Part shown: positions 14,863 through 28,879 of the stretch, piece after piece
How the letters are laid out: each line of letters begins with the position of its first letter
Position numbering within the stretch: the first letter of the stretch is position 1
Origin: Vicinamibacteria bacterium
GTDB lineage: Bacteria; Acidobacteriota; Vicinamibacteria; Vicinamibacterales; CAVVIG01
Assembly: GCA_041476545.1 (NCBI GenBank)
Contig: JBGOTP010000001.1
Location: 1-59,711 of the forward strand
Length of the DNA stretch: 59,711 nucleotides
Direction: 5' to 3'
Notes under the pieces: generated by a model
What the model was told of the DNA's origin: nothing
What the model saw: only the letters and a program-made list of their open reading frames with translations
The model's database searches: none
Program-made: the position numbers and the translations under genes

Positions 14863-15300
14863 CTATCGCGTCGCGTCGACGGTCCGGACGTGTCCCTGTT
14901 TCGCGTAGCTGAGAATGCGCTTGTCGCATGTCACGAGTGCCGCGCCCGTCAGCCGGGCGGTCGCGATCAGGATGCGATCGGCCGGGTCTCGGTGTAGCGA
15001 TCCGGGAAGGCGTGTGCTTTCGATGGCAATCGAGGGCGAGAGCCCCTTCAGCTGGACGCCGGGGAAGGCCAGCGCCCGTCCCACCCACGTGCGCACATCC
15101 TGAGAGAGCTCGATGCGGTGGATCGCTTGGAGCAGCGCGATTTCCCAGACGGAGATCGTCGAGACAAGGAGATCGCCGCGCTGGACCGCGGCTTCGACGA
15201 GGGGTCCGATCCGCCGCGAGAACCGCTTGGGCTCGTTCTCGACATACCAGACCCAGATGTGTGTGTCGAGCAGGAGCCCGCGATCCGCGTCACGATCCAT
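14863..15300 (-). CDS. vapC: PIN-domain toxin (VapC family)
   Basis: Starts at the internal MDRDADRGLLLDTHIWVW. WEIALL, RDPADRILIATA and LVTCD are PIN acidic positions. Overlaps the antitoxin stop by 11 nt. Confidence 0.8.
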   Translation of the reverse strand: MDRDADRGLLLDTHIWVWYVENEPKRFSRRIGPLVEAAVQRGDLLVSTISVWEIALLQAIHRIELSQDVRTWVGRALAFPGVQLKGLSPSIAIESTRLPGSLHRDPADRILIATARLTGAALVTCDKRILSYAKQGHVRTVDATR

Positions 15301-15622
15301 CGTCCCAGCCTGCGAGCGCCTCCCACGGCTCATCGAGCGGGCTGACGATATCGCCGAGCACCTTGACCGTGCCTTTCATGCTGCCGAGCAGCGGACGCCG
15401 CACCACGCGGATGGGCACCAGCTTGGCGACCGGCGTGCCACGCTTCGTGATGACGTACTCGCCACCCCGGTCGCGCACTTCGTCCATGATGGCGAGACAG
15501 CGGGCCTTGAACTCGCCCGCGGAGATTTCCCGGCTGCCGCCGGCGGGAGCGGCCTCCGGAGCGTAGATCGCGGGAGATTCCCGCACGGAGGACGGGCGTT
15601 GTTTGGGTGTCTGGTATTTCAT
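15290..15622 (-). CDS. Phd/YefM-type antitoxin
   Basis: ISAGEFKARCLAIMDEVRDRGGEYVITKRGTPVAKLVP is the Phd/YefM N-terminal fold pattern. The start is ambiguous (ATG at 15622 or 15628). Confidence 0.75.
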   Translation of the reverse strand: MKYQTPKQRPSSVRESPAIYAPEAAPAGGSREISAGEFKARCLAIMDEVRDRGGEYVITKRGTPVAKLVPIRVVRRPLLGSMKGTVKVLGDIVSPLDEPWEALAGWDDGS

Positions 15623-15644
15623 GACCATGGATCCATGACCATGG
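15620..15644. promoter_or_regulatory. Operator-like repeats at the antitoxin start
   Basis: CATGACCATGG occurs twice (15620-15630, 15634-15644). They bracket the perfect 12-bp palindrome CATGGATCCATG (15626-15637). Confidence 0.3.
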
Positions 15645-15688
15645 TAACACATGCCGCTGCGTCAAGCCCCAACGCGCCCTATCACCCG

Positions 15689-16576
15689 CTACTTCGTCAG
15701 ACGCTCCCGCCATCGGGCCGCAGCTTGAAACACCTCGGTCAGCCGTTCACCGTCGGCGAGATCGCGACGCAGGTCGGTCAGGATGGCGATGAGAGTGTCG
15801 AGCGAGGCGCCAATCTCATCGCTGTTTGTGGCGGCGATGTCCTTCCAGATCTCCGCCGAGCTCGACGCGAGTCTCGTGGTATCGACCAAGCCGCGCCCCG
15901 CGAGCGCCAGTCCTTCGCCGCCGACCGCATCGCCAACCGTCTGCATCAGCGCGCTGGCCGTCAGCTGTGGAAGGTGACTCAGAAACGCCAGCAGACGATC
16001 GTGGGCGCCGGCCCCCATCATCCGCGGCTCGGCGCCAAGTGCCTGAACAAAGGACAGCAGTTGTTCGAGCCCGCCGCCGGGGGCGTCGCCTGACGGCGTG
16101 AAGAGCCACGGACGGCCCTTGAAGAGATCCGGCCTGGCGTGCTCGAGGCCGCTCGCCGCGGACCCTCCGAGTGGATGGCCGCCCACGAACATAAATCGTG
16201 CTGGCAGTCTGCGCGCCGCCTCCACAATCGCGCGCTTCGTGCTGCCGACGTCGGTGATCACGGCCGGCGTTCGTACGTTCTCGTCGAGCTCCTCGAGGAG
16301 CGCGAGATTCTGCCGGACGGGGGCGGCGAGGATCACGACGTCGGCTTCGGCCAGCACGATGAGGTGGTCGGCCGCCACATCGATCGCGTGAAGGCGCATG
16401 GCGGTTTCGAGCACGTCTTTGTTGTCGACGCCGATGACGAGCGCGCTCGGCCAGATCTCGCGGGCCGCCAGCGCGATCGATCCCCCGATCAATCCGAGAC
16501 CGACAATGCCGATGCGTTGGAAGACGGGCGGCTGTCGATCGACAGGCCGCCCGGGTTGGATGACAGGTAGCGCCAC
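15689..16576 (-). CDS. tyrA: Prephenate/arogenate dehydrogenase
   Basis: 295 aa. Rossmann motif IGIVGLGLIGGS. GSTK and GGHP motifs of the TyrA family. Confidence 0.88.
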   Translation of the reverse strand: MALPVIQPGRPVDRQPPVFQRIGIVGLGLIGGSIALAAREIWPSALVIGVDNKDVLETAMRLHAIDVAADHLIVLAEADVVILAAPVRQNLALLEELDENVRTPAVITDVGSTKRAIVEAARRLPARFMFVGGHPLGGSAASGLEHARPDLFKGRPWLFTPSGDAPGGGLEQLLSFVQALGAEPRMMGAGAHDRLLAFLSHLPQLTASALMQTVGDAVGGEGLALAGRGLVDTTRLASSSAEIWKDIAATNSDEIGASLDTLIAILTDLRRDLADGERLTEVFQAAARWRERLTK

Positions 16577-16580
16577 GTCT

Positions 16581-17648
16581 TCAGTCTCTCCGACCGCGGC
16601 CTGCGACGGATTCCAGACAGATCCCGCGGCCGATCGCCGGGGCGATGATGCGGAGTTCGGCCATCAGGCGATCGAACTGCTGCGGGAGCAGGGCCTGGGG
16701 GCCGTCGCTCAGGGCGCGATCGGGATCACCGTGCACTTCGACGAGCAGACCATCGGCACCGGCGGCGACCGCGGCGCGAGCCATGGGAGCGACCATGTCG
16801 CGGCGTCCCGCCGCATGGCTCGGATCCGCGACCATCGGGAGGTGGCTCAGTTTCTTGACGATCGGAATGGACGACACGTCGAACGTGTTGCGGGTGGCCG
16901 TTTCGAACGTGCGGATCCCCCGCTCGCAGAGAATCACTTCGCTGTTGCCACCGCTCAGAATGTATTCCGCCGACAAGAGCAGCTCTTCAATCGTCGCCAT
17001 CAGCCCGCGCTTTAAGAGGACAGGTTTCCGGGCGTGTCCGAGCTCCCTCAAGAGCGTGTAGTTCTGCATGTTGCGGGCCCCCACCTGGAAGATGTCGCAG
17101 TACTCTCCCACGAGCGGGATCTGGCTCACGTCCATCACTTCCGAGACGAGCACCAGCCCCTCCGCCCTGCTGGCGTCGCGCAGGAGGCGGAGCCCCTCCT
17201 CGCCGAGCCCCTGAAAACTGTACGGCGAACTGCGCGGCTTGAACGCACCGCCGCGGAACACCTTGGCACCGGCACGCCTCACGGCCGCCGCCGTCGCCCG
17301 CACCTGCGTCTCGCTCTCAGCGGAACACGGTCCGGCCATCACGATGACTTCATCACCACCGATGCGCACGTCGCCGACGGTAATGACCGTGTTCTCCGGC
17401 TTGAACGTGCGGCTCGCCAGTTTGTAGGGCTCTGAAATGCGCACCACGTCGTGCACGCCGTCGAGCATCTGGATTAGTCCTGGATCGGGCCTGGTCTGCC
17501 CGACGACGCCCAGCACCGTCCGGGTGGCTCCGGTCGATCGGTGCACGTCCATCCCCATCCCCACCAACCGGGCCACGACGAGTTCGATCTGCTCTTCGCT
17601 CGCCCGCTCCTGCATTACGACAACCATGAACTTTCTCGCCTCCACCAC
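16581..17648 (-). CDS. aroF: 3-deoxy-7-phosphoheptulonate (DAHP) synthase, type I-beta with N-terminal regulatory domain
   Basis: 355 aa. KDO8PS-like core (GPCS.ES, KPR.SPYSFQG, LKRG, DPSH) after a ferredoxin-like N-domain. Confidence 0.9.
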   Translation of the reverse strand: MVEARKFMVVVMQERASEEQIELVVARLVGMGMDVHRSTGATRTVLGVVGQTRPDPGLIQMLDGVHDVVRISEPYKLASRTFKPENTVITVGDVRIGGDEVIVMAGPCSAESETQVRATAAAVRRAGAKVFRGGAFKPRSSPYSFQGLGEEGLRLLRDASRAEGLVLVSEVMDVSQIPLVGEYCDIFQVGARNMQNYTLLRELGHARKPVLLKRGLMATIEELLLSAEYILSGGNSEVILCERGIRTFETATRNTFDVSSIPIVKKLSHLPMVADPSHAAGRRDMVAPMARAAVAAGADGLLVEVHGDPDRALSDGPQALLPQQFDRLMAELRIIAPAIGRGICLESVAGRGRRD

Positions 17649-17673
17649 GAATGCCTGGTGCCCGGGTCTCCCC

Positions 17674-17710
17674 GCTCTCAGCTATCGGCTCTCAGCGCTC
17701 AGCCGTCAGC
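17674..17710. repeat. GCTCTCAGC-TATCG-GCTCTCAGC-GCTCAGC-CGTCAGC repeat
   Basis: Read directly. Same 9-5-9 architecture as 1568-1590. Spans the stop codon of chorismate mutase. Confidence 0.7.
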
Positions 17711-18001
17711 GTTCTCCGCTTCGCCGTCTCCATGAACGACTCGCCGCTCGAGGCGGCGCGCCTCGTCGATGATCCGCTCGAACAGTCTCCCGATCGCGTC
17801 GGCGCCGAGCGGTCCCTCTCCCGCGATCTCGCGGACGTGTCTGAGCACGTCCTTTTCTCGATCGGGCTGATACACCTCAACGCCCTGGGCTTTCTTTAGC
17901 TCTCCTACGGCACACACGCACCGGGCGCGCTCGTTGAGCAGGCGCACCAGCACTTCATCCACACGGTCGATGTCGCGTCGCAAATCGTCGAGCGTGGCCA
18001 T
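17699..18001 (-). CDS. Chorismate mutase (AroQ class)
   Basis: Starts at the internal MATLDDLRRDIDRVDEVLVRLLNERARCVCAVGELK, 6 nt after the trpA stop. R..ID..D..L..LL..R is the AroQ signature. Confidence 0.85.
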   Translation of the reverse strand: MATLDDLRRDIDRVDEVLVRLLNERARCVCAVGELKKAQGVEVYQPDREKDVLRHVREIAGEGPLGADAIGRLFERIIDEARRLERRVVHGDGEAENADG

Positions 18002-18006
18002 GTGTG

Positions 18007-18813
18007 TTATGTCCGTCGGACCGGGCACGCGTCTCGCAGCGATCGCGCGTACGCCTCGACCCGATCGATGAGCCCGGGCGACCCGCTCGCCTCGGCAATG
18101 AGTGACACCAGGGCGCTGCCGACCACGGCAGCATCAGCGTATGCGCCCACTTCAGCCACGTGCGCAGGGCGCGAGATACCAAACCCCAGCGCAATTGGCA
18201 GCGTCGTGCACGCGCGGATGCGACGCACCATGGCCTCCGCGCCAGCGGCGACGCTGTCCCGCGCACCCGTGACGCCAAGTCGCGAGATCGCGTAGAGGAA
18301 TCCGCGACCAAGCTCGGCGGCCTTCCGAATCCGCGCGTCAGTCGTCGTCGGGCTCAACAAGAATATGGTATCGAGTCCCGCGGACGCGAGCGACTCGCGG
18401 AAGTCTCCCGCCTCTTCGATAGGCAGGTCGAGCGCCAGCACGCCGTCGACCCCGGCAGCCGCCGCACGCCGCGCAAACTCGCCGACGCCCATCCGCAATA
18501 GCGGATTCGCGTAACTGAACAGCACAATCGGCGCCTTGACGGCGCCTCGTACGCCTTCCACGAGCGCCAGCGCCGCCCGCAAACTGCCGCCGGCCGCCAA
18601 GGCGCGTTCGGTTGCCCGCTGGATGACGGGCCCATCCGCCAGTGGATCCGAAAACGGCACGCCCATCTCGAGCACATCGGCGCCCCCGCGATCCAGCGCC
18701 TTGAGGATCTCGGCCGCGCGCGGCAGATCGGGATCACCGGCCGTCGTGAACGTCACCAAACCGGTCCGCCCCTCGCCGCGGAGGCGAGCAAATGTTTCGT
18801 CGATGCGGCTCAT
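18007..18813 (-). CDS. trpA: Tryptophan synthase alpha chain
   Basis: Starts at the internal MSRIDETFARLRGEGRTGLVTFTTAGDP. Also contains GADVLEMGVPFSDPLADGPVIQ. Confidence 0.92.
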   Translation of the reverse strand: MSRIDETFARLRGEGRTGLVTFTTAGDPDLPRAAEILKALDRGGADVLEMGVPFSDPLADGPVIQRATERALAAGGSLRAALALVEGVRGAVKAPIVLFSYANPLLRMGVGEFARRAAAAGVDGVLALDLPIEEAGDFRESLASAGLDTIFLLSPTTTDARIRKAAELGRGFLYAISRLGVTGARDSVAAGAEAMVRRIRACTTLPIALGFGISRPAHVAEVGAYADAAVVGSALVSLIAEASGSPGLIDRVEAYARSLRDACPVRRT

Positions 18814-18864
18814 GCTAGCGACATTCTTCACCACAGAGGACACAGTGGACACAGAGGCAAAACC

Positions 18865-20073
18865 TCATGTGGTGATTATTTCTTTTCCAAGGTATTTCTC
18901 CACGGTGTGCACGTCCTTATCCCCGCGGCCAGACAGATTGACGAGCACGATCTTCGAAGGGTCGAGATCCCGCGCCACCTTCTGCGCATGGGCGATGGCA
19001 TGCGACGATTCCAGTGCCGGCAGAATGCCCTCCCGCCTGGCGAGCGCCTGAAATGCCGTCAGCGCCTCGGCGTCGCTCACATGCGCGTACGACGCGCGCC
19101 CCATGCCTCTCAGCCAGGCATGTTCCGGTCCGACCGCTGCATAGTCCAGTCCCGCCGAAATCGAATGCGTCGCTTCAATGTTCCCATCGTCGTCCTGGAG
19201 CACGAACGTGCGCGTGCCCTGGAGCACGCCCATACTGCCGCCGGCGAACCGCGCCGCGTGCCGGCCACGGACGATCGCTTCGCCGCCGGCTTCCACACCC
19301 ACCAACTGCACGCTCGTATCGTCCACGAAGGCGTCAAAGATCCCCAGGGCATTGCTGCCGCCACCGACACATGCGACGACGACGTCGGGGAGACGACCGA
19401 CGTGATCGAGCATCTGCGCGCGTGCCTCGCGGCCGATCACGGATTGAAATTCCCGCACCATCAGCGGATACGGATGAGGGCCGAGCACCGAGCCTAGGAG
19501 ATAGTACGTGTCGCCGACATTCGTCACCCAGTCCCGCATCGCTTCGTTGATGGCGTCCTTCAACGTGCGGCTCCCTGCATCAACGCCAATGACCTCGGCA
19601 CCAAGCAGACGCATGCGAAAGACATTCAGCGCCTGGCGCGCCATGTCTTCGGTCCCCATGTAGACGTGGCACTCGAGCCCAAGTAGTGCACATGCGGTCG
19701 CGGTGGCGACGCCGTGCTGCCCCGCTCCCGTCTCGGCAACAATCCGCCGCTTGCCCATCCGGACGGCAAGAAGCGCCTGACCGATGGCGTTGTTGATCTT
19801 GTGCGCGCCGGTATGCGTGAGATCCTCTCGTTTGAGGAAGATCCTGGCGCCGCCCGAGGCCTCGGTCAGCCTCGCGGCCTCCCACGTTGGCGTCGGCCTG
19901 CCGACGTAGTGCTTCAGCAGTCGATCGATCTCGGCTTGAAAAGCGGCCTCATCCCGTGCCGCGAAGTACGCGCGTTCGAGATCTTCAACCGGTGCGACCA
20001 GCGTTTCGGGCACGAAGCGACCACCGAATTCACCGAAATAGCCGTGCGCGTCCGGATCTCTTCTGTGAATCAC
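18865..20073 (-). CDS. trpB: Tryptophan synthase beta chain
   Basis: GTG at 20073 overlaps the trpF TGA (GTGA). [35 protein letters not shown] reject the upstream 65 codons of the track ORF. Confidence 0.92.
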
Positions 20074-20693
20074 TTCTTTGCACCTACTGCGTCGAACAGC
20101 GCCCTCATCTTCTCGTGATCCTTCACGCCCGGCGTTCGCTCCACACCCGACGACACATCGATCCCGAACGGCCCGACCTGCTCTACCGCCTCTGCGACGT
20201 TCCCGGCCGTCAGGCCTCCAGCCAGCCACACGCGCCGGGTTCGCGCGAGCATCGCAGCCGCGGCCCAATCACCCTTCATTCCCGTCCCTCCCCGGCGAAC
20301 CGGATCGTGCGCGTCGACAAGCCACGTCGTGTCCGCGGGCCACTCCCCGAATATCGATTGACCGGCGGTGAGGCTCGCGGCCTTGATCACCGGCAGCCTT
20401 ATCGACGCCGCCATGTCCGGCGTTTCGTCGCCGTGCAGTTGCACATGGGTCAGCCCGGCCGCGCGAGCCACTTGATTCACGTGGGCCACCGTTTGATTCA
20501 CGAAGACACCGACTTTCATCACGGACGCCGGCAGCGACTCGACGATCGCTCGCACGTGATCGGGATCGACATACCGCGGGCTCTCGGGCCAGAACACGAA
20601 CCCGATCGCGTCGGCGCCGCATTCCACCGCCGCCTCCGCATCGACGAGACTCGTGATGCCGCAGATCTTTACCAGCATCAGGCTTGTATCCAT
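20070..20693 (-). CDS. trpF: Phosphoribosylanthranilate isomerase
   Basis: [10 protein letters not shown]...GADAIGFVF...SPRYV. The start may be ATG 20678 instead. Confidence 0.9.
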
Positions 20694-20739
20694 CGCTGAG
20701 CGAACACAATGGACACCGACGACACAAAGAAAGGTCTTG

Positions 20740-21576
20740 TCACTCGGTGTCCGCCGTGGTGATTCGGCTCTCGGACAACAACACCCGCAGCGCTTGGCCC
20801 GGATCCGCTTCCCCCATGAATCGTTCGCCGATGAGAAACGCGTGATAGCCGAGCGACGAGAGGCGCATCAGATCGCCGGCCGTCTTCAAGCCGCTCTCGC
20901 TCACCGCACTCACTCCGGCCGGCATGCGCGCCACCAGCGCCTCTGATGCGTGAACGTCGACCTGCAGTGTTCGCAGATTCCGATTGTTCACGCCGATGAT
21001 GCCGGCACCGGCGCCAAGCGCCACACTCAATTCCTCGTCATTGTGCACCTCGACGAGTGTATCCAGGCCGAGTGCCGCTGCACGTCCAGCCAGTCGCCGC
21101 AGTTCCTCCGGCGACAGCGCGGCCACGATCAGCAGGACCGCGTCGGCGCCGTTCGCCCGCGCTTCCAGAAGCTGGTACTCGGACACGATGAAATCTTTTC
21201 GCAGCAGCGGCGTGGCGACCGCGCCGCGCACCGCCCGCAGATCGTCGAGCGATCCGTCGAAAAAGGTCGGTTCTGTGAGTACCGAAATGGCGGCCGCACC
21301 GGCTGCGGCATAGCCGCGCGCGATCGACACGGGATCGTAGTCCTTGCGAATGACGCCGCGCGACGGCGACCGCCGTTTGCACTCCGCAATCACGTTGACG
21401 CCGCCCTTGCGATCGAGCGCCGCACGAAACACGCCGGGACGGGGCGTCCGCTCCTCCGCCCGCCGCGCAAGCGCGTCCATCGACTCCCGCGCTTCCCGCA
21501 CTTCAACGATGCGGCGCGTTGCCGCGACAATGGCTTCGAGGAGGTCCGCCCCCGAGGCGACGCCAGGACTGCTCAT
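20740..21576 (-). CDS. trpC: Indole-3-glycerol-phosphate synthase
   Basis: VIAECKRRSPSRG, LRKDFIV..YQ..EA, GVNNRNL. Confidence 0.92.
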   Translation of the reverse strand: MSSPGVASGADLLEAIVAATRRIVEVREARESMDALARRAEERTPRPGVFRAALDRKGGVNVIAECKRRSPSRGVIRKDYDPVSIARGYAAAGAAAISVLTEPTFFDGSLDDLRAVRGAVATPLLRKDFIVSEYQLLEARANGADAVLLIVAALSPEELRRLAGRAAALGLDTLVEVHNDEELSVALGAGAGIIGVNNRNLRTLQVDVHASEALVARMPAGVSAVSESGLKTAGDLMRLSSLGYHAFLIGERFMGEADPGQALRVLLSESRITTADTE

Positions 21577-22655
21577 GTGCCCGCCCCCGCGCTCCCGCGA
21601 CCAGGACTCGCGCCTGGCTGCGTATCAGTGCCGGCGCGTCGCTCCTCAATCGACGACAGTGATGCCAACTGATCGAGGGTGCGGCGCGCACCCCCCGAAT
21701 CGATGGCCTCCGCTGCGCGCACGATGCCGTCCTTGATGGATGGTGCGGTGCCGGCAATGAAAAGCGCGGCCCCCGCATTCAGCAGAACGACGTTGCGCGC
21801 GGCGCCGGCTTCGCCGGCTAGAACTCTCTCGATGATGCCCGCATTCTCCCGCGCGTCTCCGCCCTTCAGCGATGCCAGTGGGACCTTGGGCATGCCGACA
21901 TCGCCGGGGTGCAGATAGAAGGTGTGGACCGCGCCCGCGCGACACTCGGAGATCTTCGTATAGCCGGTCGTCGAGATCTCGTCGATGCCGTCGGCCCCAT
22001 GAACCACCCACGCCCGATCGGACCCGAGCAACATGAGCGCCCGCGCCAGCAACTCGGTCAACTCGGGTCGCGGTACACCCACGAGCTGCCGTGTCGCGCC
22101 CGCCGGATTCGTGAGCGGGCCGAGCAGATTGAAGGCGGTCCGGACGCCGAGCGCTCGGCGCGCGCCCGCCGCATGGCGCATCGACGGATGGAACGTCGGC
22201 GCAAAAAAGAATCCGAGGCCCGCCTCATCGAGGCATCGCTCAACGCCGGCGGGCGACGCAGACACCTTCACGCCAAGCGTTTCGAACACGTCCGCGCTGC
22301 CCGACAGGCTCGACACCGATCGATTGCCGTGCTTTGCCACGCGTACACCGCAGGCAGCGACGACGACCGCGACGCAGGAGGAAATATTGAACGTCCCTGA
22401 ACGATCGCCTCCGGTCCCGCAGCAGTCGAACACGGGATCGTGCCGGCGCGACAGCTGCACCGCGTGCGCGCGCATGGTCCGCGCCAGGCCGACGATTTCG
22501 GTCGGCCGCTCGCCCTTCATCGCCAGGCCGATGAGGAATCCCGCAATCTGCGCGTCGGACGCGCGCCCTTCCATCACGTCGGCCATGGCGGCCGCCGCCT
22601 CCTCGCTCGTGAGGTCTTCGCGGCGCATGAGCGTTTCAATCAGGGCCGGAAACAT
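21573..22655 (-). CDS. trpD: Anthranilate phosphoribosyltransferase
   Basis: Starts at the internal MFPALIETLMRREDLTSEEAAAAM, 2 nt after the trpG stop. CGTGGD, KHGNR. ATGA overlap with trpC. Confidence 0.92.
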   Translation of the reverse strand: MFPALIETLMRREDLTSEEAAAAMADVMEGRASDAQIAGFLIGLAMKGERPTEIVGLARTMRAHAVQLSRRHDPVFDCCGTGGDRSGTFNISSCVAVVVAACGVRVAKHGNRSVSSLSGSADVFETLGVKVSASPAGVERCLDEAGLGFFFAPTFHPSMRHAAGARRALGVRTAFNLLGPLTNPAGATRQLVGVPRPELTELLARALMLLGSDRAWVVHGADGIDEISTTGYTKISECRAGAVHTFYLHPGDVGMPKVPLASLKGGDARENAGIIERVLAGEAGAARNVVLLNAGAALFIAGTAPSIKDGIVRAAEAIDSGGARRTLDQLASLSSIEERRAGTDTQPGASPGRGSAGAGT

Positions 22656-22657
22656 GC

Positions 22658-23242
22658 CTAATCCTGGCGTCCCTCGAGGAAGTTGCGAAGAATGTGATGT
22701 CCCTCGGCCGTCAGCACCGACTCGGGGTGAAACTGGACACCGGAGATCGGCAACGTGCGATGACGCAACCCCATAATGATGCCGTCGCCCTGCGTGCGGG
22801 CGGTGATTTCCAGGTCTGCGGGAAAGCCGTCCTCGGAGACGACGAGCGAGTGATAGCGCGAGGCGACGAATGGCTCGGCGATCCCGGTGAACAGGCCTCG
22901 TCCGTTGTGTTCGATCACCGACGTCTTTCCGTGCATGGGAACGGGGGCCCGGACGACTTGACCGCCGAAGACCGCACCAATCGCCTGATGCCCCAGGCAC
23001 ACGCCCAGGATCGGCGTCCGCTGCCCCAGCCTCCGAATCATCTCCATCGTCACGCCCGCATCTTCGGGACGGCCCGGTCCTGGTGAGATGACGATGTGCT
23101 CCGGACGGCGCAACGCAATAGCATCAACGGTCGCGGCATCGTTGCGAACAACGCTGACGGTCGCTCCGAGCTCGCCCAGATACTGGACGAGGTTATAGGT
23201 GAACGAGTCGTAGTTATCCAGGACGAGGACCATACCGAACAT
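22658..23242 (-). CDS. trpG: Anthranilate synthase component II (glutamine amidotransferase)
   Basis: MVLVLDNYDSFTYNLVQYL, GVCLGHQ, FHPES. Start at ATG 23242 or 23233. Confidence 0.92.
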   Translation of the reverse strand: MFGMVLVLDNYDSFTYNLVQYLGELGATVSVVRNDAATVDAIALRRPEHIVISPGPGRPEDAGVTMEMIRRLGQRTPILGVCLGHQAIGAVFGGQVVRAPVPMHGKTSVIEHNGRGLFTGIAEPFVASRYHSLVVSEDGFPADLEITARTQGDGIIMGLRHRTLPISGVQFHPESVLTAEGHHILRNFLEGRQD

Positions 23243-23251
23243 CTTCCTTCT

Positions 23252-23344
23252 GGCAGGGCTGAAGCCCTGCACTACTTTCGCTGACCCGGTCGCAACGCAG
23301 GCCATTTCGCTGACCCGGTCGTAGTGCAGGCCTTCAGGCCTGCC
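23252..23344. repeat. 93-bp inverted-repeat (MITE/REP-like) element between trpE and trpG
   Basis: 24-nt arm GGCAGGGCTGAAGCCCTGCACTAC (23252-23275) and its inverted copy with 2 mismatches (23321-23344). Internal 16-nt direct repeat TTTCGCTGACCCGGTC (23276-23291, 23305-23320). Each arm is itself a hairpin. Confidence 0.8.
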
Positions 23345-24809
23345 AATTCTGCGCGAGCTCGAGCGCCCGCAGCAGCGCGCGCGCCTTGTCGCGCGTTTCC
23401 TGGTATTCAGCCGATGGATCCGAATCCATCACAATGCCGGCGCCAGCTTGCACGTACGCCTTGCCGGCCGACATGATGACCGTGCGGATCGCGATACAGA
23501 AGTCCAGATTGCCCGCGAAATCCAGATAGCCGACGGCGCCCGCATAGAGCCCGCGGCCGGACGGCTCGAGCTCGTGAATGATCTGCATCGCCCGCACTTT
23601 TGGCGCGCCCGAGACCGTGCCGGCTGGGAAGCACGACACCAGCGCATCGAGGCGGTCGCTGCCCGAAGCCAGACGTCCTTCGACAATCGAGGTGAGGTGC
23701 ATCACGTGTGAGAAGCGCTCGATGCCCATGAACTGGGACACGGTGACCGAGCCGAACTCACACACCCGGCCGATATCGTTCCTCCCGAGGTCGACAAGCA
23801 TCAGGTGCTCGGCGCATTCTTTCTGGTTGTGCGCCAGCTCCTCGGCCAGCCTCGCGTCTTCTTCGTTTGTCTTTCCGCGCGGGCGCGTGCCGGCGATCGG
23901 ATGCGTCTCAACGCGCGTACCCTCGACGCGCACGAGCATCTCGGGCGACGAGCCGACAACCGACACGCCGCCCATCCGGATGAAATACATGTACGGCGAC
24001 GGATTCACGTGCCTGAGCGCGCGATAGACCGTGAACGGATCCGCCGACACGTCGGCCTCGAACCGCTGCGACAGCACGACCTGGTAGACGTCGCCGGCGG
24101 CGATGTGCTCTTTGGCCGCCCGCACGTGCGCTTCGAATTGCTCGCGGGTCTGATTGGACCACACATCGAGCACGGTGGACGCCTCGGTCCTCGCCGTCGA
24201 CAGGCTTCTCTCGAGCTCTCGTTCGAGAAACTGGATTTTCGCGCACGCAAACTGATAGAGCGACTCCAGATCGTCGTCTACCGACACTCGCGCGTTGGCG
24301 ATGATGAGAATCCGATGCTGGACGTGATCGAATGCCAGCACCGTATCGAACAGCATGAAGCCCGCCTCGTCGGCGCCATCGGCTCCCGTCCCGAGATCGC
24401 CCAGCACGGGCTCGAACCACGAGGCGGCCCCGTACCCCAGATATCCCACCGCGCCGCCGGTGAACCGCGGCAGGTCCGGCACGGCCGGGGATCGGAAGTC
24501 CGTCATCAACCCGCGCAGCGTCTCGATGAAGGGCCGATCGCTCGTCGTCACCGCGCCGCCGCGCTCGAGTGTGATCGCACCGTCTCGCGCGCGCAGCACC
24601 AGAAACGGATCTTTGCCCAGGAAGGAATATCGCCCGACATGCTCGCCACCTTCGACACTCTCGAGCAGAAAGGCATAGTCCGCGTTCTCGGCGATCTTGA
24701 GGAAGGCCGAAACCGGCGTAAGCAGATCCGCGACCAGTTCCTTGCAGACCGGCACGAAGGTGCCGCGCGTCGCGAGGTCCTTGAATGTTTCAAACGAGGT
24801 GATGTTCAT
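23334..24809 (-). CDS. trpE: Anthranilate synthase component I
   Basis: Starts at the internal MNITSFETFKDLATRGTFVPV. Chorismate-binding core (GDVYQVVLSQRF, GAVGY). Overlaps the aroD/E stop by 20 nt. Confidence 0.92.
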   Translation of the reverse strand: MNITSFETFKDLATRGTFVPVCKELVADLLTPVSAFLKIAENADYAFLLESVEGGEHVGRYSFLGKDPFLVLRARDGAITLERGGAVTTSDRPFIETLRGLMTDFRSPAVPDLPRFTGGAVGYLGYGAASWFEPVLGDLGTGADGADEAGFMLFDTVLAFDHVQHRILIIANARVSVDDDLESLYQFACAKIQFLERELERSLSTARTEASTVLDVWSNQTREQFEAHVRAAKEHIAAGDVYQVVLSQRFEADVSADPFTVYRALRHVNPSPYMYFIRMGGVSVVGSSPEMLVRVEGTRVETHPIAGTRPRGKTNEEDARLAEELAHNQKECAEHLMLVDLGRNDIGRVCEFGSVTVSQFMGIERFSHVMHLTSIVEGRLASGSDRLDALVSCFPAGTVSGAPKVRAMQIIHELEPSGRGLYAGAVGYLDFAGNLDFCIAIRTVIMSAGKAYVQAGAGIVMDSDPSAEYQETRDKARALLRALELAQNWQA

Positions 24810-26274
24810 CGATCGCAAACTCCGCAAGCCGCTCGATTGCCGCCGCCCGCATGACGCCCTCCGCCGGCCGGGCGCCCGTCCACCATTGAAACTGTTCCTC
24901 CGCTTGCGCGACCAGCATGTCGAGGCCGCCGATTGTCTGACAGCCCGCCGCGGCCGCGTCGCGCAGCAGTCGCGTTGCCTGTGGGTTGTAGACAAGGTCG
25001 TACACGACGCGCCCCGTCAAGAGCTCTGCCGGCACCGGCGTCTCGTCAATTTTTGGATGCATGCCGATGGGCGTGCAGTTGACCAGCAGATCCCAGCTGC
25101 CTGGTTCGGGTGGCCAGACGCCGACGTCACCCGACACCATGGCGGCCACTTCCTGCGCGCGCGATCGGGCTCGCGCATGCACGCGGACCGTGGCGCCACT
25201 CGAGGCGAGTCCGACGGCAACAGCCCGTGCCGACCCGCCAGCGCCAAGAACGGACGCACGCATTCCGCTCACCTGGATACCGAGATCCTGAAGAGGCCGA
25301 AGAAATCCGTTGGTGTCCGTGTTGCCGCCAATCCATCGGCTGTTGACCACGCGAATGGTGTTGATGGCCCCAATCCGACGCGCGATCGGGTCCGCCTCGT
25401 CCACTCGCTCGAACAGCGACACTTTGAAGGGAATCGTCACGCTCGCGCCCTTGACGCCGAGTGCGCGCGCGAACGTCACGAAATCGTCGGGATCGGCGGC
25501 GGGCATCGGCAGGTACACCGCGTCGACGCCGGCAGCCTTGAACGCGGCATTGTGCATCGCCGGAGACACGGAGTGCGAAATCGGCGAACCGGTCAGACCG
25601 TAGATGCCGGTCGCTTCTGTCACGGCGCGAAAGCGGTATTCGTGGAGCAGGCGTTTCGGGCTCACCTGCCCCACGTCGCCCATCGCACCGGCGTAGGTCC
25701 ATGCGGATCCGAACCGCTCGGCGAGCACGCGCGTTGCGATGCCCTGTTCTCCCATGGCGATGAGGACCAGCATCCCGTCGCCCTTCATCGCACCACCGAG
25801 ATCCATGAGTGGCAGACAATCGCTCAAGCGGTTGGCCTTCACCGCGATCTTGATGACCGCGGCGCCCGTCTGCCGCATCGCGCGCGCACGGTCGGCCAAA
25901 TCCGCGGGCACGCCCTGGAAGTCGTGCATTGAGAGCACGGTGCGCCGGCCGTAGGCCCTGGTAATCGCGCCACTGAACGCCGCGCGCCATTCGACATCCA
26001 CGTATTCGGCGCCGCAGGCCAGGGCTTCCTCGATCAGCGCACGACGCGCCTCTTCGGATCCCGAACACTGCCCGCCTTCCCACGCCGGCCGGCAGGTGAC
26101 GATCACGGGCCGCGTCCGGTCTGCGAGTGCCTCGCGGACACTTGGATCGCGTACCGAGTCCAGACGCAGCTCGACGAGATCGGCGCCGCCCGTGCTCGCG
26201 GCAGCATCGCGGCGACGGCGAAGCTCCGCCGTCGTGGGCGCCGTGACGGTCACACAGACCAGGGGTTTAGGCAT
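24790..26274 (-). CDS. aroDE: Bifunctional 3-dehydroquinate dehydratase (type I) / shikimate 5-dehydrogenase
   Basis: 494 aa. N-terminal half: VCVTV...VELRLD...IVTCR (AroD type I). C-terminal half: GSPISHSVSPAMHNAAF...LGAGGSARA (AroE). Confidence 0.88.
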   Translation of the reverse strand: MPKPLVCVTVTAPTTAELRRRRDAAASTGGADLVELRLDSVRDPSVREALADRTRPVIVTCRPAWEGGQCSGSEEARRALIEEALACGAEYVDVEWRAAFSGAITRAYGRRTVLSMHDFQGVPADLADRARAMRQTGAAVIKIAVKANRLSDCLPLMDLGGAMKGDGMLVLIAMGEQGIATRVLAERFGSAWTYAGAMGDVGQVSPKRLLHEYRFRAVTEATGIYGLTGSPISHSVSPAMHNAAFKAAGVDAVYLPMPAADPDDFVTFARALGVKGASVTIPFKVSLFERVDEADPIARRIGAINTIRVVNSRWIGGNTDTNGFLRPLQDLGIQVSGMRASVLGAGGSARAVAVGLASSGATVRVHARARSRAQEVAAMVSGDVGVWPPEPGSWDLLVNCTPIGMHPKIDETPVPAELLTGRVVYDLVYNPQATRLLRDAAAAGCQTIGGLDMLVAQAEEQFQWWTGARPAEGVMRAAAIERLAEFAIDEHHLV

Positions 26275-26279
26275 TAGTC

Positions 26280-26317
26280 AAAAAAAAAGCCTCTTCAACC
26301 GGTAGGCTGAAGAGGCT
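26280..26317 (-). terminator. Intrinsic terminator/attenuator hairpin with U-tract
   Basis: Minus strand AGCCUCUUCAGCC-UACC-GGUUGAAGAGGCU (13 bp, one G.U) followed by a U-run to 26280. Ends 5 nt before the aroD/E ATG. Confidence 0.75.
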
Positions 26318-26339
26318 GGGAACATCGTTGTGCAGTGGC

Positions 26340-26399
26340 TCAGGCCAAGGCAGACGCCTCTTCAGAAGTGTTCCAATACCACCACGCCGCTGGACGCAC
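26340..26399 (-). CDS. Candidate Trp leader peptide (19 codons; alternative GTG at 26453 gives 37)
   Basis: GTG MRPAAWWYWNTSEEASALA TGA, with TGG TGG TAT TGG at 26384-26373. Lies between the promoter-like element and the terminator. Confidence 0.55.
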   Translation of the reverse strand: MRPAAWWYWNTSEEASALA

Positions 26400-26462
26400 G
26401 GCCGCCCGGCTTGGGGAACTTGTCGAGCTGGCAAACGAAAAGGCCTTCTGCACTCGGGAAGG

Positions 26463-26492
26463 ACAATACCAGAGCGTGATTCAGCCTGTCAA
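26463..26492 (-). promoter_or_regulatory. Candidate sigma70-type promoter TTGACA-18 nt-TATTGT for the aro/trp operon leader
   Basis: Minus strand TTGACA (26492-26487) and TATTGT (26468-26463). Confidence 0.45.
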
Positions 26493-26524
26493 TCCACGTC
26501 AGTCGGCTCGTCGGGCTGCACCCG

Positions 26525-28879
26525 CTAGAGCTTTTCATTGACGAACCATGGGCGCAGCGCCGCCGGCACATCCGGATGATCAACGGGAGATTGGCGCGAA
26601 GGCTTTTCCAACAGCCGCCACCAGCGGGCTACGCCGTCCGTCAACCCTCGGTTGTAGCGGAGATCTTTGGGAGCGCGGCCGCTGAAGACCACGAATTTGT
26701 CATCTGCTCCGAAGGCGACAAGCGACCGCTCGCGCAAGAATTTCTGGCAGTCCTGGTGCGCGGGATCGAGCCCTATATGCCACTCGCCATACCAGCGGCC
26801 TGCCGGGTCGAGGCGCCCTCCCCACTTCGCCTTGTAGATCATCAATCCGTCGTCGAGGTAGGGCGGCGATCCTCCCAAGCAGAGTCGCGTGCAGCCGAGC
26901 GCATAGGCCCGCTGCACCGAAAACCAATAGAGAGCGGCGAGCGCGCCGTCTTTCACGAGCGACATGTCTCCGTCGCGCCAACCGAGACGCATTGTGCGGT
27001 AACCCTCCGGACATATGCGCGTGAACGCAGCCGCGACGCACGCGCCGTCTCGCATCACCTTCACGAACTCGGTGCCTTCGACCCGCAGTTCTTTGGCCAA
27101 GTGTTTTTCCGGGAGCACATGGCCTTCGCGCCCGTGCCGTCCAGTGATGGCGGGTAGATGAAATCGACTGTAGAATTCAGGTATAAAGGCCGCATCGCAC
27201 GTCACTTCGCTCGTCAGACGACGGCTCCGGATTCGTGCGAGGTCGTTGCTTGCCGACGAGCCGAGACTCGCGCGGTATAACTCAAGGGTTGACGGCAGAT
27301 CCACCGCGACATCGATGAGCTTGGGCATGCGGATGAGTTCGTTGCGTAGCTCTTCCGACACTCTCGTTTCCGAGATCACGGACAGCCCGTAGCGCTGCGT
27401 CAGGCGCCTCGCGATATGCGTGCAGCCCGGCCGGTGCAAGCCCCAACGCATGTTGTAACGCTCGCGATCGCCAAGATAGAGGCGCGCGAAATGATGCCGT
27501 GCATGCGGACTTCCGATAACACCCAAGCCGGCGCCGCCACCCGGTCGGGTGATTTCCAAGTGAATGAAATCCCGGCGCAAACGTCGAGCCCACCCGCGCA
27601 GCCGTTCTAACGAATGGAGCGTCAGGCGGTGCAAAAGCTTGAGGTAGATCCAGGCGCTCGGAAGCGGATCCCGCCATTCCCAAGTCATGTGGTTGTCAGC
27701 GCGCACCAACGACCAAAACAGGGCCCGCAGCCAGCGGCGACGTTCGGATCCGGACAGGGCGCCTTTCGTGCTGCACCAGCCGTTGATGTCCCGCAGCAAC
27801 CAGTGAGCACGGCTGTGAGCCCGATAGTGCTGTACGTCCCCGGTCACCTCTTTCAGCGCAAACTTGTGAAGGCGCGAGGTTGCTTGCAGCGTCAACAGCG
27901 GGAAATTCTCGCCACAGAATATGCTCTGGGCGATTCCTGCTGACAATCTCGGGTTGTTCTCGATGAAATACAGCTTGCCGTCGTCCACGCTACGGATCAA
28001 TTGCATCAGACCGGGGCCGGAGTAGTTATGGCCCCGTACAAAATCGCGGCACGCCGACATCACGTCCTTGGCAATCGGATCTGACAGAAAGTCAACCGCG
28101 AAGCCAGTTCCATCAACCATGTCGGTTCGGAGGGCGTGAGCTTGAAAATACGCGACCAGGACGCCCTTTGCCGCGACAAAGTCGCATTGTTCCAGCCTTC
28201 CTTCGACGTAGCGTTGAATGAGCAGGGCGTCATGCTCAGGCGGCCACACGCTGAACCTGGCTTGGAACTCGTCCGCAGAAGTCAGGATGTACGCTTTACG
28301 GCCGAAAATCTTCGCAGTGGATCGAACGGGTTTGACGATTGCCGGAAATCCGAAGGATCTGACGAAGATGTGCATCTCCTCGAGGGAACCAACCGTTCTG
28401 GTTTCGGGAACCAGGATCCCAACTTGCTGGGCCAATAGATTGGCTCGGCCCTTGTCATGACAGGCCTCAAAAATCGCCGGTGGAACCATGGCGATGTCGA
28501 TGTGTTTTGCCAGGATGTTGGGCAGCCTGCAGAGAGCGGCTGCGCTTGACTCACCCACCGGGAAGACACAGCCAACGTCCGACCGCTCGTCGAGAAACCT
28601 GGACAAGGCCGCCCCGAACGAGGCGGCATCTTTGATTGAAGGGTGCAACCAGGTTTCGTCGCAATACCGGGACCACTCCACTTCGGCACGTCCGCCACTA
28701 CTTCCTACTATGATGCGATAGCCCGCGCGACCGAGCGCCCTCACGACGGCAAGCGTCTGAGCGGTCCGATCCAGAACAAGCACAGATGGACCCGCATTGT
28801 CTCGCAAATCGTTCAGCTGCGAAACGTGACCAGCCGGCATCTCTTTCCCTATCCTCGAGTCGGGATGAAGTTGTCGCAA
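26525..28879 (-). CDS. ATP-grasp domain / GNAT (FemAB- or CelD-like acetyltransferase_6) fusion protein
   Basis: 784 aa. An alternative start at ATG 28840 has a better SD-like GGGAAAGAG. N-terminal half has an ATP-grasp layout (preATP-grasp VLVLD..A..VVRALGRAG, IVKP, LIQRYVEG, FIENNPR). C-terminal half: DGACVAAAF...DGALAALYWFSVQRAYALGCTRLCLGG...YKAKWGG resembles Fem/CelD-type GNAT. Confidence 0.65.
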   Translation of the reverse strand: MRQLHPDSRIGKEMPAGHVSQLNDLRDNAGPSVLVLDRTAQTLAVVRALGRAGYRIIVGSSGGRAEVEWSRYCDETWLHPSIKDAASFGAALSRFLDERSDVGCVFPVGESSAAALCRLPNILAKHIDIAMVPPAIFEACHDKGRANLLAQQVGILVPETRTVGSLEEMHIFVRSFGFPAIVKPVRSTAKIFGRKAYILTSADEFQARFSVWPPEHDALLIQRYVEGRLEQCDFVAAKGVLVAYFQAHALRTDMVDGTGFAVDFLSDPIAKDVMSACRDFVRGHNYSGPGLMQLIRSVDDGKLYFIENNPRLSAGIAQSIFCGENFPLLTLQATSRLHKFALKEVTGDVQHYRAHSRAHWLLRDINGWCSTKGALSGSERRRWLRALFWSLVRADNHMTWEWRDPLPSAWIYLKLLHRLTLHSLERLRGWARRLRRDFIHLEITRPGGGAGLGVIGSPHARHHFARLYLGDRERYNMRWGLHRPGCTHIARRLTQRYGLSVISETRVSEELRNELIRMPKLIDVAVDLPSTLELYRASLGSSASNDLARIRSRRLTSEVTCDAAFIPEFYSRFHLPAITGRHGREGHVLPEKHLAKELRVEGTEFVKVMRDGACVAAAFTRICPEGYRTMRLGWRDGDMSLVKDGALAALYWFSVQRAYALGCTRLCLGGSPPYLDDGLMIYKAKWGGRLDPAGRWYGEWHIGLDPAHQDCQKFLRERSLVAFGADDKFVVFSGRAPKDLRYNRGLTDGVARWWRLLEKPSRQSPVDHPDVPAALRPWFVNEKL

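Follow-up and report, generated by a model that had tools for sequence, protein, structure and literature searches.

Between an upstream 784-aa ORF and the aroD/E fusion gene that heads an aromatic amino acid operon, the minus strand of the window (the whole stretch of DNA analysed, 59,711 nt) contains a short region that raises the question of whether, and in response to which amino acids, transcription into the operon is controlled. The first-pass annotation had read the region as a ribosome-mediated Trp attenuator. All the elements it named were found at the positions it gave, and comparative evidence from conservation, covariation, spacing, an open frame and linkage to the operon supports this reading. 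Judged from sequence, the element is very probably a ribosome-mediated leader-peptide Trp attenuator of an 11-gene aromatic operon. The features expected of such an attenuator are present, namely a cluster of cognate codons ahead of a biosynthetic operon (a WWYW run, with the operon encoding trpEGDCFBA), an intrinsic terminator, with covariation, that separates the leader ORF from the first structural gene, and an antiterminator exclusive with that terminator, one strand of which would be freed by a stalled ribosome and blocked by a ribosome at the stop codon, as judged from pairing, folds and spacings. The comparison set consisted of 77 related genomes (Vicinamibacterales, Acidobacteriota; AroD/E 54–72% identical) and about 30 metagenome contigs. 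An alignment of the orthologous intergenic regions, which the annotation had proposed as a check, revealed conserved Trp codons and compensatory stem changes.

The promoter that would drive the leader has a score of 10/12 plus TG and is the best sigma-70-like promoter in a 12.5-kb scan. The TTGACA and TATTGT hexamers and their 18-nt spacing had been recognized before and are found on the minus strand at the coordinates in Table 1. This promoter is conserved: the −10 consensus among relatives is TAnnGT (TATCGT in 35 of 79 loci) and the spacer measures 18 nt in 61 of 79. Downstream, with the aroD/E ATG at 26274 on the minus strand, Pfam identifies the aroD/E fusion, trpE, trpG, trpD, trpC, trpF, trpB, trpA, chorismate mutase, DAHP synthase (FXD type) and tyrA, bearing out the earlier description of an aro/trp operon that includes DAHP synthase, chorismate mutase and tyrA. 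Two loci (L081 and L082) have the identical 11 functions in identical order, and the arrangement aroDE-trpE-trpG-trpD is syntenic in 74–80 of 80 loci. The sequencing runs that contain the window sequence are DNA from sediment metagenomes only, with no RNA run among them.

Table 1. Features of the leader region and operon (window coordinates)
Feature	Coordinates	Strand	Basis or remark
−35 hexamer TTGACA, leader promoter	26487–26492	−	exact in 66/79 aligned loci
Extended −10 box TGgTATTGT (TATTGT 26468–26463, preceded by TGn)	26463–26471	−	18-nt spacer to −35
Segment 1, CCCGAGUGCAGAAGGCCUUUUCGU, candidate anti-antiterminator / pause helix arm; contains the GTG start	26435–26458	−	MFE fold
Leader ORF, long form (most likely), GTG 26453, 37 codons plus stop, VQKAFSFASSTSSPSRAAVRPAAWWYWNTSEEASALA	26340–26453	−	translation; conserved start position
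Internal GTG, 19-codon form, MRPAAWWYWNTSEEASALA, TGA 26342–26340	26397–26399	−	less likely start
Regulatory run TGG TGG TAT TGG (W-W-Y-W)	26373–26384	−	codon run in 79/79 leaders
Segment 2, core CUGAAGAGGC (26365–26356), antiterminator 5′ strand; extension to 26345 pairs with segment 1	26345–26365	−	inverted repeat
Inner hairpin within the antiterminator; leader stop UGA (26342–26340) in its loop	26331–26352	−	folds
Segment 3, AGCCUCUUCAGCC, antiterminator 3′ strand and terminator 5′ arm	26305–26317	−	common to both structures
Segment 4, GGUUGAAGAGGCU, terminator 3′ arm	26288–26300	−	94.6% paired; RNAalifold
U-run, nine U, intrinsic terminator	26280–26288	−	first U closes stem
Operon, 11 genes	15689–26274	−	Pfam and synteny

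Immediately ahead of the operon lies a terminator with a 13-bp stem (26317–26305 with 26300–26288), a 4-nt loop and a folding energy of −22.5 kcal/mol, by far the strongest in the 12.5-kb scan. Its T-run ends 5 nt ahead of the aroD/E ATG, as previously described, and all relatives have a T-run behind the hairpin. The helix formed by segments 3 and 4 is 94.6% paired across relatives, against 33–60% when slid, with compensatory changes, that is, changes on both sides, at five pairs. RNAalifold recovers this 3:4 helix from the alignment unaided and returns only that one, as expected because the alternative folds are mutually exclusive. An SD-like element (GAAGAGG) in the terminator 3′ arm had led to the suggestion that translation of aroD/E might be masked as well; with 15 nt between its GAGG and the aroD/E ATG the case for masking is weak in the window, whereas in about a quarter of relatives a distance of 8 nt makes masking plausible.

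The strand that competes for the terminator 5′ arm lies inside the leader ORF. That is, CTGAAGAGGC (26365–26356) is 100% complementary over 10 nt to GCCTCTTCAG (26316–26307), so that the complementarity between segments proposed in the first-pass annotation is exact in the window, and both helices of the proposed 2:3 versus 3:4 competition are conserved in register. The motif GAAGAGGC occurs seven times in the 59.7-kb window (2.5 expected), three of them in the leader element, and a similar segment is found inside the leader ORF in all relatives. Across 78 distinct sequences, 94.5% of the cells of the 2:3 helix are paired, against 37–52% when the helix is slid, a comparison in which the structure, having been taken from the window itself like that of the 3:4 helix, is favoured over its slid versions. 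Four pairs of this helix have changed on both sides, these changes, as well as those in the 3:4 helix, resting on few independent events, since segments 2, 3 and 4 are very conserved. In three loci (L055, L057 and L069) all three strands have changed together (CUGGAGAGGC / GCCUCUCCAG / UUGGAGAGGC), and in a fourth (L045) the three strands have likewise co-changed, with different sequences. Because the sequences are related, shuffle controls overstate significance. When the 79 loci were folded independently without segment 4, at least 60% of the terminator 5′ arm paired into the leader ORF in 92% of them. The variation in segment 2 consists of A to G changes that replace Glu by Gly and yet keep a G·U pair, which suggests that the constraint on this segment acts on the RNA. 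Within the antiterminator, the inner hairpin is 67% paired (17–47% when slid), both sides having changed at each of its seven pairs, and it is found in about two-thirds of the loci.

The codons that would be read by the ribosome before it enters segment 2 are equally characteristic. The WWYW run noted earlier, with three Trp codons in four at 26384–26373, corresponds to a leader consensus of A-W-W/R-W-Y-W in relatives, in which the Trp codons are kept. All 79 leaders have 2–4 Trp codons within six codons (two in 24 loci, three in 46 and four in 9), while the rest of the leader contains 0.2% Trp and 1.6% Tyr. The Tyr codon in the run is invariant (79/79; TAT 61, TAC 35). The TAT codon of the window would therefore not be filler, and this invariance suggests that the leader senses Tyr as well as Trp.

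Two in-frame GTG codons could start the leader, and both ORFs described in the first-pass annotation do exist. Its preference for the 19-codon ORF from GTG 26399 did not hold up, and the relatives favour the 37-codon form from GTG 26453 that it had listed as an alternative. In the window, GTG 26453 lies 9 nt past the −10 box; the distance from −10 box to start has a mode of 9–10 nt in relatives, and an in-frame ATG, GTG or TTG is found 6–15 nt past the −10 box in 58 of 71 loci, the other two frames having one in 1 and 14 loci. Moreover, no stop codon interrupts the Trp frame between promoter and run in 67 of 71 loci, compared with 27 and 53 for the other frames. Most likely, then, the actual leader is the 37-codon form. 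With a start at GTG 26399 the attenuator would be the same, with segment 1 falling in a 5′ UTR of about 55 nt, untranslated and free to act as a pure RNA element, and an in-frame GTG about five codons ahead of the Trp run does recur in roughly one third of relatives. We regard this version as improbable, given that a start 3–9 codons ahead of the run is absent in many relatives (e.g. L001–L003, L007, L010, L013, L015, L017, L023, L026, L030 and L041), that what is conserved is instead the start 9–12 nt past the −10 box, with a frame already open from the promoter, and that GTG 26399 has no properly spaced Shine-Dalgarno sequence; the only purine-rich stretch, GGGCGG, ends 2 nt ahead of this GTG, too short a distance for an SD. 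Because GTG 26453 is only 9 nt past the −10 box, the 5′ UTR of the transcript would be about 0–6 nt long and leave no room for an SD, and the leader transcript is predicted, with its start site placed from the promoter-to-start distance, to be near-leaderless. The leader in the window thus combines a GTG start with the lack of an SD, and we know of no demonstration of efficient leaderless initiation at GUG in Acidobacteriota; that the leader ORF is translated we infer from the conservation of its frame and start position.

The spacing of these parts fits a switch set by the position of the ribosome. The gap separating the last Trp codon and the segment 2 core measures 9 nt in 52 of 74 loci, and the one separating this core and the stop codon 13 nt in 59 of 74, spacings that can be read against generally known ribosome footprint sizes. 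In terms of energy, the 2:3 structure is best before segment 4 exists (−23.7 kcal/mol), whereas afterwards the terminator state is best (−35.2 vs −24.3 kcal/mol). These modelled energies are consistent with a kinetic switch; since equilibrium strongly favours the terminated state, regulation would depend on kinetics. In the proposed mechanism, the attenuator would set the share of polymerases from the promoter at 26492–26463 that enter the operon. Transcription would start a few nucleotides before GTG 26453, and a ribosome would load at or near the 5′ end and translate the 37 codons. With charged tRNA-Trp (and possibly tRNA-Tyr) plentiful, the ribosome would pass the W-W-Y-W run, cross segment 2 and reach the stop 13 nt beyond, where it would cover or sterically block segment 2 while segments 3 and 4 are made; the 13-bp hairpin with its nine-U tail would then form and transcription would end 5 nt before aroD/E. 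With charged tRNA-Trp scarce, the ribosome would stall on the run and segment 2 would stay exposed, because the reach of a stalled ribosome roughly equals the 9-nt gap between the last Trp codon and the core of this segment. The exposed segment 2 would pair with segment 3 as soon as the latter emerges, the terminator would come too late and the polymerase would read on. We infer from the sequences compared where transcription starts, that the leader is translated, that ribosomes stall on it and that the operon responds to Trp or Tyr.

A further element, segment 1, which the first-pass annotation had not noticed, is more restricted. For the window, the predicted duplex of segment 1 with segment 2 plus the 3′ extension of the latter has an energy of −28.0 kcal/mol (z = −2.55), and the core complementarity has p = 0.005. 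Among closer relatives 9 of 42 show this core signal at p ≤ 0.05 (2.1 expected), among distant ones 0 of 32, and duplex energies compared with shuffles over the relatives revealed no general 1:2 pairing (mean z = −0.43). This argues that segment 1 is real in the window and confined to part of the clade. As modelled, segment 1 would serve as an anti-antiterminator: in the window, and in some of its close relatives, the segment containing the start codon would pair with segment 2 and enforce termination when the leader is untranslated. The Trp codons are not inside segment 1. In the window, a ribosome stalled at the run would already be more than 50 nt past segment 1 and would leave it unmasked. 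The 1:2 pairing is also the stronger one (−28.0 vs −18.6 kcal/mol) and might re-form and defeat antitermination, unless it is hindered sterically by the stalled ribosome or by queued ribosomes over segment 1. Pairing of the Trp run (GGUGG) with a conserved GCCACC past the stop, as an E. coli-like segment 1, was considered as well and gave no signal (mean z = −0.47).

A pair of alternative structures is not in itself proof of a ribosome as the sensor, and the switch could be real while being set by a trans-acting factor, for instance a protein like TRAP, a small molecule or, as in T-boxes, an uncharged tRNA, with the Trp-rich ORF incidental. Bacillus subtilis does run a comparable aromatic supraoperon by TRAP. 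We consider such a factor very unlikely in the present case. TRAP requires 9–11 regularly spaced (G/U)AG triplets, 2–3 nt apart, whereas the leader has only four irregular ones, separated by gaps of 95, 19 and 48 nt, and TRAP attenuation was rejected as a candidate. Furthermore, cmscan of 26100–26700 against Rfam, including T-box, riboswitch and Trp_leader (RF00513) families, returned at E ≤ 10 only two chance eukaryotic matches. An incidental ORF, moreover, would not keep 2–4 Trp codons, an invariant Tyr codon, an open frame, a promoter-proximal start and the 9-nt and 13-nt spacings over 79 loci.

The leader-peptide attenuator is also tied to the operon wherever it was found. An ORF with the Trp run, followed by a strong terminator ahead of aroD/E, is present in 77 of 77 relatives having upstream sequence, and this conservation speaks most decisively against a chance arrangement. 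A gene-agnostic scan of metagenomes yielded 25 more complete units, of which 24 precede aroD/E and one ends at a contig end; regarding a wider regulon, the complete unit was found only ahead of aroD/E among the 120 hits of this pattern, 89 of which were chance matches without terminator and without aroD/E. In the whole window no other attenuator-like unit was detected, this being the sole strong terminator preceded by a mini-ORF with a codon run. These associations indicate that the unit travels with the operon and not with the upstream gene, and the notion that the hairpin is the mere terminator of the 784-aa ORF, which in the window is co-oriented and ends about 210 nt before it, with the Trp ORF and the 10-nt complementarity arising by chance, is effectively refuted by a strong promoter lying between the two, by synteny (a homolog of that ORF precedes aroD/E in 0 of 80 loci while the hairpin is always present, and the neighbouring upstream gene is divergent in L081 and L082) and by conservation of the whole unit.

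The closest functional parallel is the E. coli trp attenuator (trpL; Trp_leader RF00513). As in that system, a leader ORF with tandem Trp codons is followed by an intrinsic terminator directly ahead of the first structural gene, antiterminator and terminator have a strand in common, and a stalled ribosome would free the upstream strand that a ribosome at the stop would block; the window has a candidate 1:2 helix as well, which would favour termination. There is, however, no sequence or structure homology (no Rfam match at E ≤ 10), and the design differs in several respects: the predicted leader has 37 codons instead of 14 and no SD, and would be near-leaderless; the Trp codons come after segment 1 and ahead of segment 2, whereas those of E. 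coli are within segment 1; the stop follows segment 2 by 13 nt, whereas that of E. coli precedes it; much of the clade lacks segment 1; the run contains an invariant Tyr codon; and the operon also has common-pathway and Tyr-branch genes. In the latter respect the locus resembles the B. subtilis supraoperon, in which trp genes form one unit with common-pathway genes and tyrA under a 5′-leader choice between antiterminator and terminator, the sensor there being TRAP bound to (G/U)AG repeats of a kind not found here.

The first-pass annotation had regarded leader-peptide Trp attenuation as described mainly for Proteobacteria and some Actinobacteria. This is too narrow, as 14 leaderless leader-peptide attenuators, including that of trpEGD, have been predicted in Deinococcus deserti, where the transcription start of the trpEGD leader was mapped 1 nt before its start codon (PMC4007540). 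Polycysteine leaderless short ORFs are likewise described for mycobacteria (10.1101/834739). Like these leaders, the one described here would be translated from the very 5′ end without an SD; it belongs to another phylum and is unrelated in sequence, and its transcription start is deduced from the promoter-to-start distance, whereas the starts of those leaders were mapped. In Corynebacterium glutamicum, ribosome-mediated attenuators, trpL and aroR, act on aromatic biosynthesis genes (Neshat et al. 2014, as summarised in PMC11802643). In that summary, aroR has a mixed Phe-Tyr-Phe run, controls a DAHP synthase operon and is unaffected by Tyr availability (PMC11802643). A Tyr codon within a run is thus no proof of Tyr sensing. 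The likeness to aroR consists of a mixed run (here Trp/Tyr) ahead of an operon with DAHP synthase outside the Proteobacteria; in C. glutamicum, trp and aroF have two separate attenuators, whereas here one leader precedes both gene sets.

A bolder reading, which we put forward tentatively and rate as possible rather than probable, is that a near-leaderless leader whose W...W-Y-W/Y run is invariant serves as a bivalent Trp and Tyr master switch of the whole aromatic supraoperon (DAHP synthase, aroD/E, Trp branch, chorismate mutase and tyrA). Conserved across Vicinamibacterales, the switch would give Acidobacteriota their first defined family of leader-peptide attenuators, with a three-segment core to which a fourth segment, containing the start codon, has been added in one sub-clade. 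Acidobacteriota are abundant in soils and sediments, and to our knowledge almost nothing is known about their gene regulation. A genome-wide survey from 2010 noted that hardly any of the attenuators predicted in Acidobacteriota could be given a function (PMC2965389). We found no description of the present leader element in the literature and no Rfam family for it. The element leaves the concept of attenuation unchanged and would place its classical design in an order of poorly studied soil and sediment Acidobacteria. With about 110 examples it constitutes a well-delimited regulatory RNA family that can be used for annotation, and its leaders are suggestive of routine translation from very short or absent 5′ leaders in this lineage. 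Moreover, it may be a case of a single leader integrating two amino-acid signals to gate the enzymes of the common pathway, the Trp branch and the Tyr branch.

The promoter, the Trp-codon frame, the 10-nt pairing and the terminator that the first-pass annotation had placed ahead of the aro/trp operon were all found at the coordinates claimed when the minus strand was read. Pfam agreed with the extent proposed for the operon, including DAHP synthase, chorismate mutase and tyrA: an aroD/E fusion is followed by trpE, G, D, C, F, B and A, and then by chorismate mutase, a DAHP synthase that carries an FXD domain, and tyrA. In a 12.5-kb scan, the leader promoter was the best sigma-70-like match and the leader hairpin by far the strongest terminator, and in the whole window this element alone had a codon-run mini-ORF ahead of a strong terminator. 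The 8-mer TGGTATTG occurs twice on the minus strand (repeat D2), at 26464-26471 in the extended -10 box and at 26374-26381 in the Trp/Tyr run, which is probably a coincidence.

Features of the leader region upstream of aroD/E
Feature	Position	Strand	Remarks
Intergenic region	784-aa ORF stop (26525) to aroD/E ATG (26274)	minus	250 nt
-35 box	26492-26487	minus	TTGACA; 18-nt spacer to -10 box
-10 box	26468-26463	minus	TATTGT, TGn just before
Long leader ORF	start GTG 26453	minus	37 codons; translation VQKAFSFASSTSSPSRAAVRPAAWWYWNTSEEASALA, then stop
Short leader ORF	start GTG 26399	minus	19 codons
Trp run	26384-26373	minus	TGG TGG TAT TGG
Segment 2 core and its complement	26365-26356 (CTGAAGAGGC); 26316-26307 (GCCTCTTCAG)	minus	perfect complementarity; inverted repeat I2
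Inner hairpin	26352-26331	minus	UGA stop in loop; conserved stretch around stop codon
Leader stop	26342-26340	minus	TGA
Terminator hairpin	26317-26305 with 26300-26288	minus	13 bp and nine U; inverted repeat I1

AroD/E homologs were from Acidobacteria without exception. A one-genome-per-species scan gave 80 related loci (54-72% AroD/E protein identity), nearly all labelled Vicinamibacterales or Acidobacteriota, and matches to the window sequence were confined to sediment-metagenome DNA runs. The leader unit was present in 77 of the 77 relatives having upstream sequence. Each has a reading frame containing a Trp-rich stretch (consensus A-W-W/R-W-Y-W), a segment resembling GAAGAGGC, a stop codon, and a GCCUCUUCAG...UGAAGAGGC hairpin followed by a run of U. 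Metagenome contigs were also scanned with a gene-agnostic leader pattern. Of its 120 matches, 25 had a complete leader and terminator, with aroD/E about 105-190 nt beyond 24 of them (the 25th reaches the contig end), six had aroD/E but failed the strict terminator filter, and 89 were chance matches with neither terminator nor aroD/E. The unit is thus specific to the aromatic operon, and no wider regulon was seen among these 120 matches. Six related bins (L011, L019, L020, L032, L043 and L072) are labelled Bifidobacterium breve, Bifidobacteriaceae, Betaproteobacteria or Burkholderiales; their AroD/E proteins are 62-66% identical to that of the window, those with upstream sequence have the Vicinamibacterales-type leader, and their public labels look wrong, through mis-binning or mislabelling. 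The terminator lies 0-42 nt from aroD/E except in loci L053 (about 220 nt; leader 3664-3779, aroD/E at 4001) and L047 (about 140 nt, including a run of N).

The alternative pairings proposed for the window stood up in an alignment of 79 leader sequences (A2), in which the Trp codons and both helices are conserved, with changes on both sides. The terminator (segments 3 and 4) was 94.6% paired in register versus 33-60% when one arm was slid by 1-3 columns, and the antiterminator (segments 2 and 3) 94.5% versus 37-52%, in sequences that share kinship and for a structure whose derivation from the window gives it an advantage over the slid controls. Both-side changes were seen at five terminator and four antiterminator pairs, one of the latter being A-U in 62 sequences, G-U in 9 and G-C in 6. 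In three loci (L055, L057 and L069) all three strands changed in concert, to CUGGAGAGGC, GCCUCUCCAG and UUGGAGAGGC, and the most divergent locus, L045, has the same switch logic in different sequences. Strong conservation of all three strands leaves few compensatory events that count as independent. Variation in segment 2 is almost wholly A to G, which turns Glu codons into Gly yet leaves segment 3 paired through G.U, so that the constraint fits RNA pairing and not the peptide. When loci were folded singly without segment 4, 92% of them had at least 60% of the terminator 5′ arm base-paired with the leader ORF; RNAalifold, which outputs a single structure, recovered the terminator alone. Relative to L004 and L005, to which it is close, locus L007 (3848-3966) has lost 1 nt right after the Trp run, which brings a stop directly behind the run (WRWYWS, then stop) and leaves segment 2 and the terminator intact; the change reflects either a fault in the assembly or natural variation, with the ribosome halting ahead of segment 2 in the latter case.

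The Trp frame is open from promoter to run in 67 of 71 loci; the two remaining frames are open in 27 and 53. The promoter is conserved, with TTGACA exact in 66/79 loci, an 18-nt spacer in 61/79 and a -10 consensus TAnnGT (TATCGT in 35 loci). Among the 71 good-promoter loci, 58 have an in-frame ATG (31), GTG (22) or TTG (5) 6-15 nt past the -10 box, with a peak at 9-10 nt, against 1 and 14 in the other frames; GTG 26453 of the window lies at 9 nt. With transcription starting, as is usual, some 7 nt past the -10 box, the predicted 5′ UTR is 0-6 nt and the transcript leaderless or nearly so. Of the two starts offered initially, GTG 26453 thus gains from the conserved spacing, and we favour the 37-codon leader on this comparative ground. 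For the window alone, an attenuator with the short leader is conceivable but improbable: many relatives lack a start a few codons ahead of the run, and no SD is suitably spaced from GTG 26399. A conserved motif of about 45 nt, GTTATAcgGGAGAAGTGCTTgCTGGTCAAGGAGAAATGG, was found in 38/79 relatives (e.g. L001, L003, L005, L018, L024 and L081) and not in the window; it ends about 9 nt upstream of the leader -35 box (e.g. L081:9685-9725). Its opposite strand reads TTGACC-17-TATAAC, and the ATG of the neighbour follows after about 11 nt, which identifies it as a divergent promoter serving the adjacent gene (a Peptidase_S55 in both L081 and L082). The 5′ UTR there would again be very short, which suggests that such promoter-to-start spacing is normal in this lineage. 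The proposed masking of the aroD/E SD is weak for the window, where 15 nt separate the segment 4 GAGG from the ATG, too far for an SD. Of the 39 relatives with a defined start, ten have a spacing of 8 nt, ten one of 11-14 nt and 19 one of at least 15 nt; such masking is plausible in some relatives and no conserved feature.

A switch set instead by a factor (TRAP, T-box or riboswitch) is unlikely, as an Rfam scan gave no relevant match at E<=10, (G/U)AG triplets are only four and irregular, and the coding signature would be left unexplained. That the hairpin is simply the upstream gene's terminator was rejected, a homolog of the 784-aa ORF lying upstream of aroD/E in 0/80 relatives and the neighbour in L081 and L082 being on the opposite strand.

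The 784-aa ORF (26525-28879, minus) has weak ATP-grasp matches, below the Pfam cut-off, and adjoins the operon in no relative. Directly after tyrA comes a 127-aa ORF without Pfam match (15330-15713, minus), which shares 4 nt with an ORF for a PIN domain (14863-15333, minus). The two might form a toxin-antitoxin pair of VapBC type, inserted between tyrA and the CoA-transferase genes; in L082 those genes adjoin tyrA directly. In that locus trpF-trpB and DAHP synthase-tyrA are single-gene calls (L082:15499-17409 and L082:18623-20647), which may be true fusions or missed stop codons.

As the predicted mechanism, ribosome-mediated attenuation is well supported by sequence comparison. Going by known ribosome footprints, a ribosome that stalls while the last Trp codon occupies its A site extends about 9 nt downstream, and 52/74 loci have 9 nt between the end of that codon and the segment 2 core, so segment 2 would be just exposed. 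The stop codon lies 13 nt past the core in 59/74 loci (only 1 nt in one sub-clade of seven), and a ribosome there would overlap the 3′ end of the core. Before segment 4 is made, the best fold 3′ of the stalled ribosome contains the antiterminator (-23.7 kcal/mol); with segment 4 present, the terminator state is at -35.2 versus -24.3 kcal/mol with the antiterminator enforced. Since the terminator wins at equilibrium, antitermination must depend on kinetics, as it does in classical attenuators. In the window MFE fold, 26458-26435 (segment 1, GTG start included) pairs with segment 2 and a 3′ extension (-28.0 kcal/mol, z = -2.55; complementarity to the core, p = 0.005). Over the relatives this broad duplex was non-significant (mean z = -0.43), full-length folds paired segment 2 with the 5′ region in 32/74 loci and left it unpaired in 21, and contiguous complementarity to the core was significant in 9/42 closer relatives (2.1 expected) and 0/32 distant ones. 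This points to a three-segment core design with a fourth segment added in part of the clade, where it would likely enforce termination when the leader is untranslated. As a ribosome stalled at the window's run leaves segment 1 uncovered and its pairing with segment 2 is the stronger, the model needs steric hindrance or queued ribosomes to keep that helix from re-forming. The inner hairpin was 67% paired versus 17-47% slid, with both-side changes at all seven pairs, and is found in about two-thirds of loci; it is enclosed by the antiterminator loop, and the terminated state contains it too.

The predicted mechanism is that of a classical ribosome-mediated attenuator. Compared with E. coli trpL, the leader is longer, has no SD and carries a mixed Trp/Tyr run, its operon differs in breadth, its regulatory codons separate segment 1 from segment 2 where those of trpL are part of segment 1, and the stop codon follows segment 2 rather than preceding it. 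The element is no member of the enterobacterial Trp_leader family (Rfam, E<=10). Its nearest functional relatives are the C. glutamicum trpL and aroR attenuators and the leaderless leaders of Deinococcus and mycobacteria. In Deinococcus deserti, leaderless leader peptides are documented, one of them on trpEGD, with a TSS 1 nt before the start codon (PMC4007540). No published account of the present element was found in the searchable literature, and a 2010 survey stated that the attenuators predicted in Acidobacteria had essentially no annotation (PMC2965389).

The six-codon run holds two Trp codons in 24 loci, three in 46 and four in 9, and Trp makes up 0.2% of the leader outside it. A Tyr codon is within the run in 79/79 leaders, at a fixed position immediately ahead of the last Trp or Tyr. 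Both TAT (61) and TAC (35) are used in the run while Tyr is rare elsewhere in the leader (1.6%), so that what is conserved is the meaning of the codon. Caution is called for, since the C. glutamicum aroR leader (Phe-Tyr-Phe, ahead of DAHP synthase) showed no effect of Tyr availability (PMC11802643). Even so, because the operon closes with chorismate mutase, DAHP synthase and tyrA, as it also does in L081 and L082, an attractive reading is that the leader would sense both Trp and Tyr.
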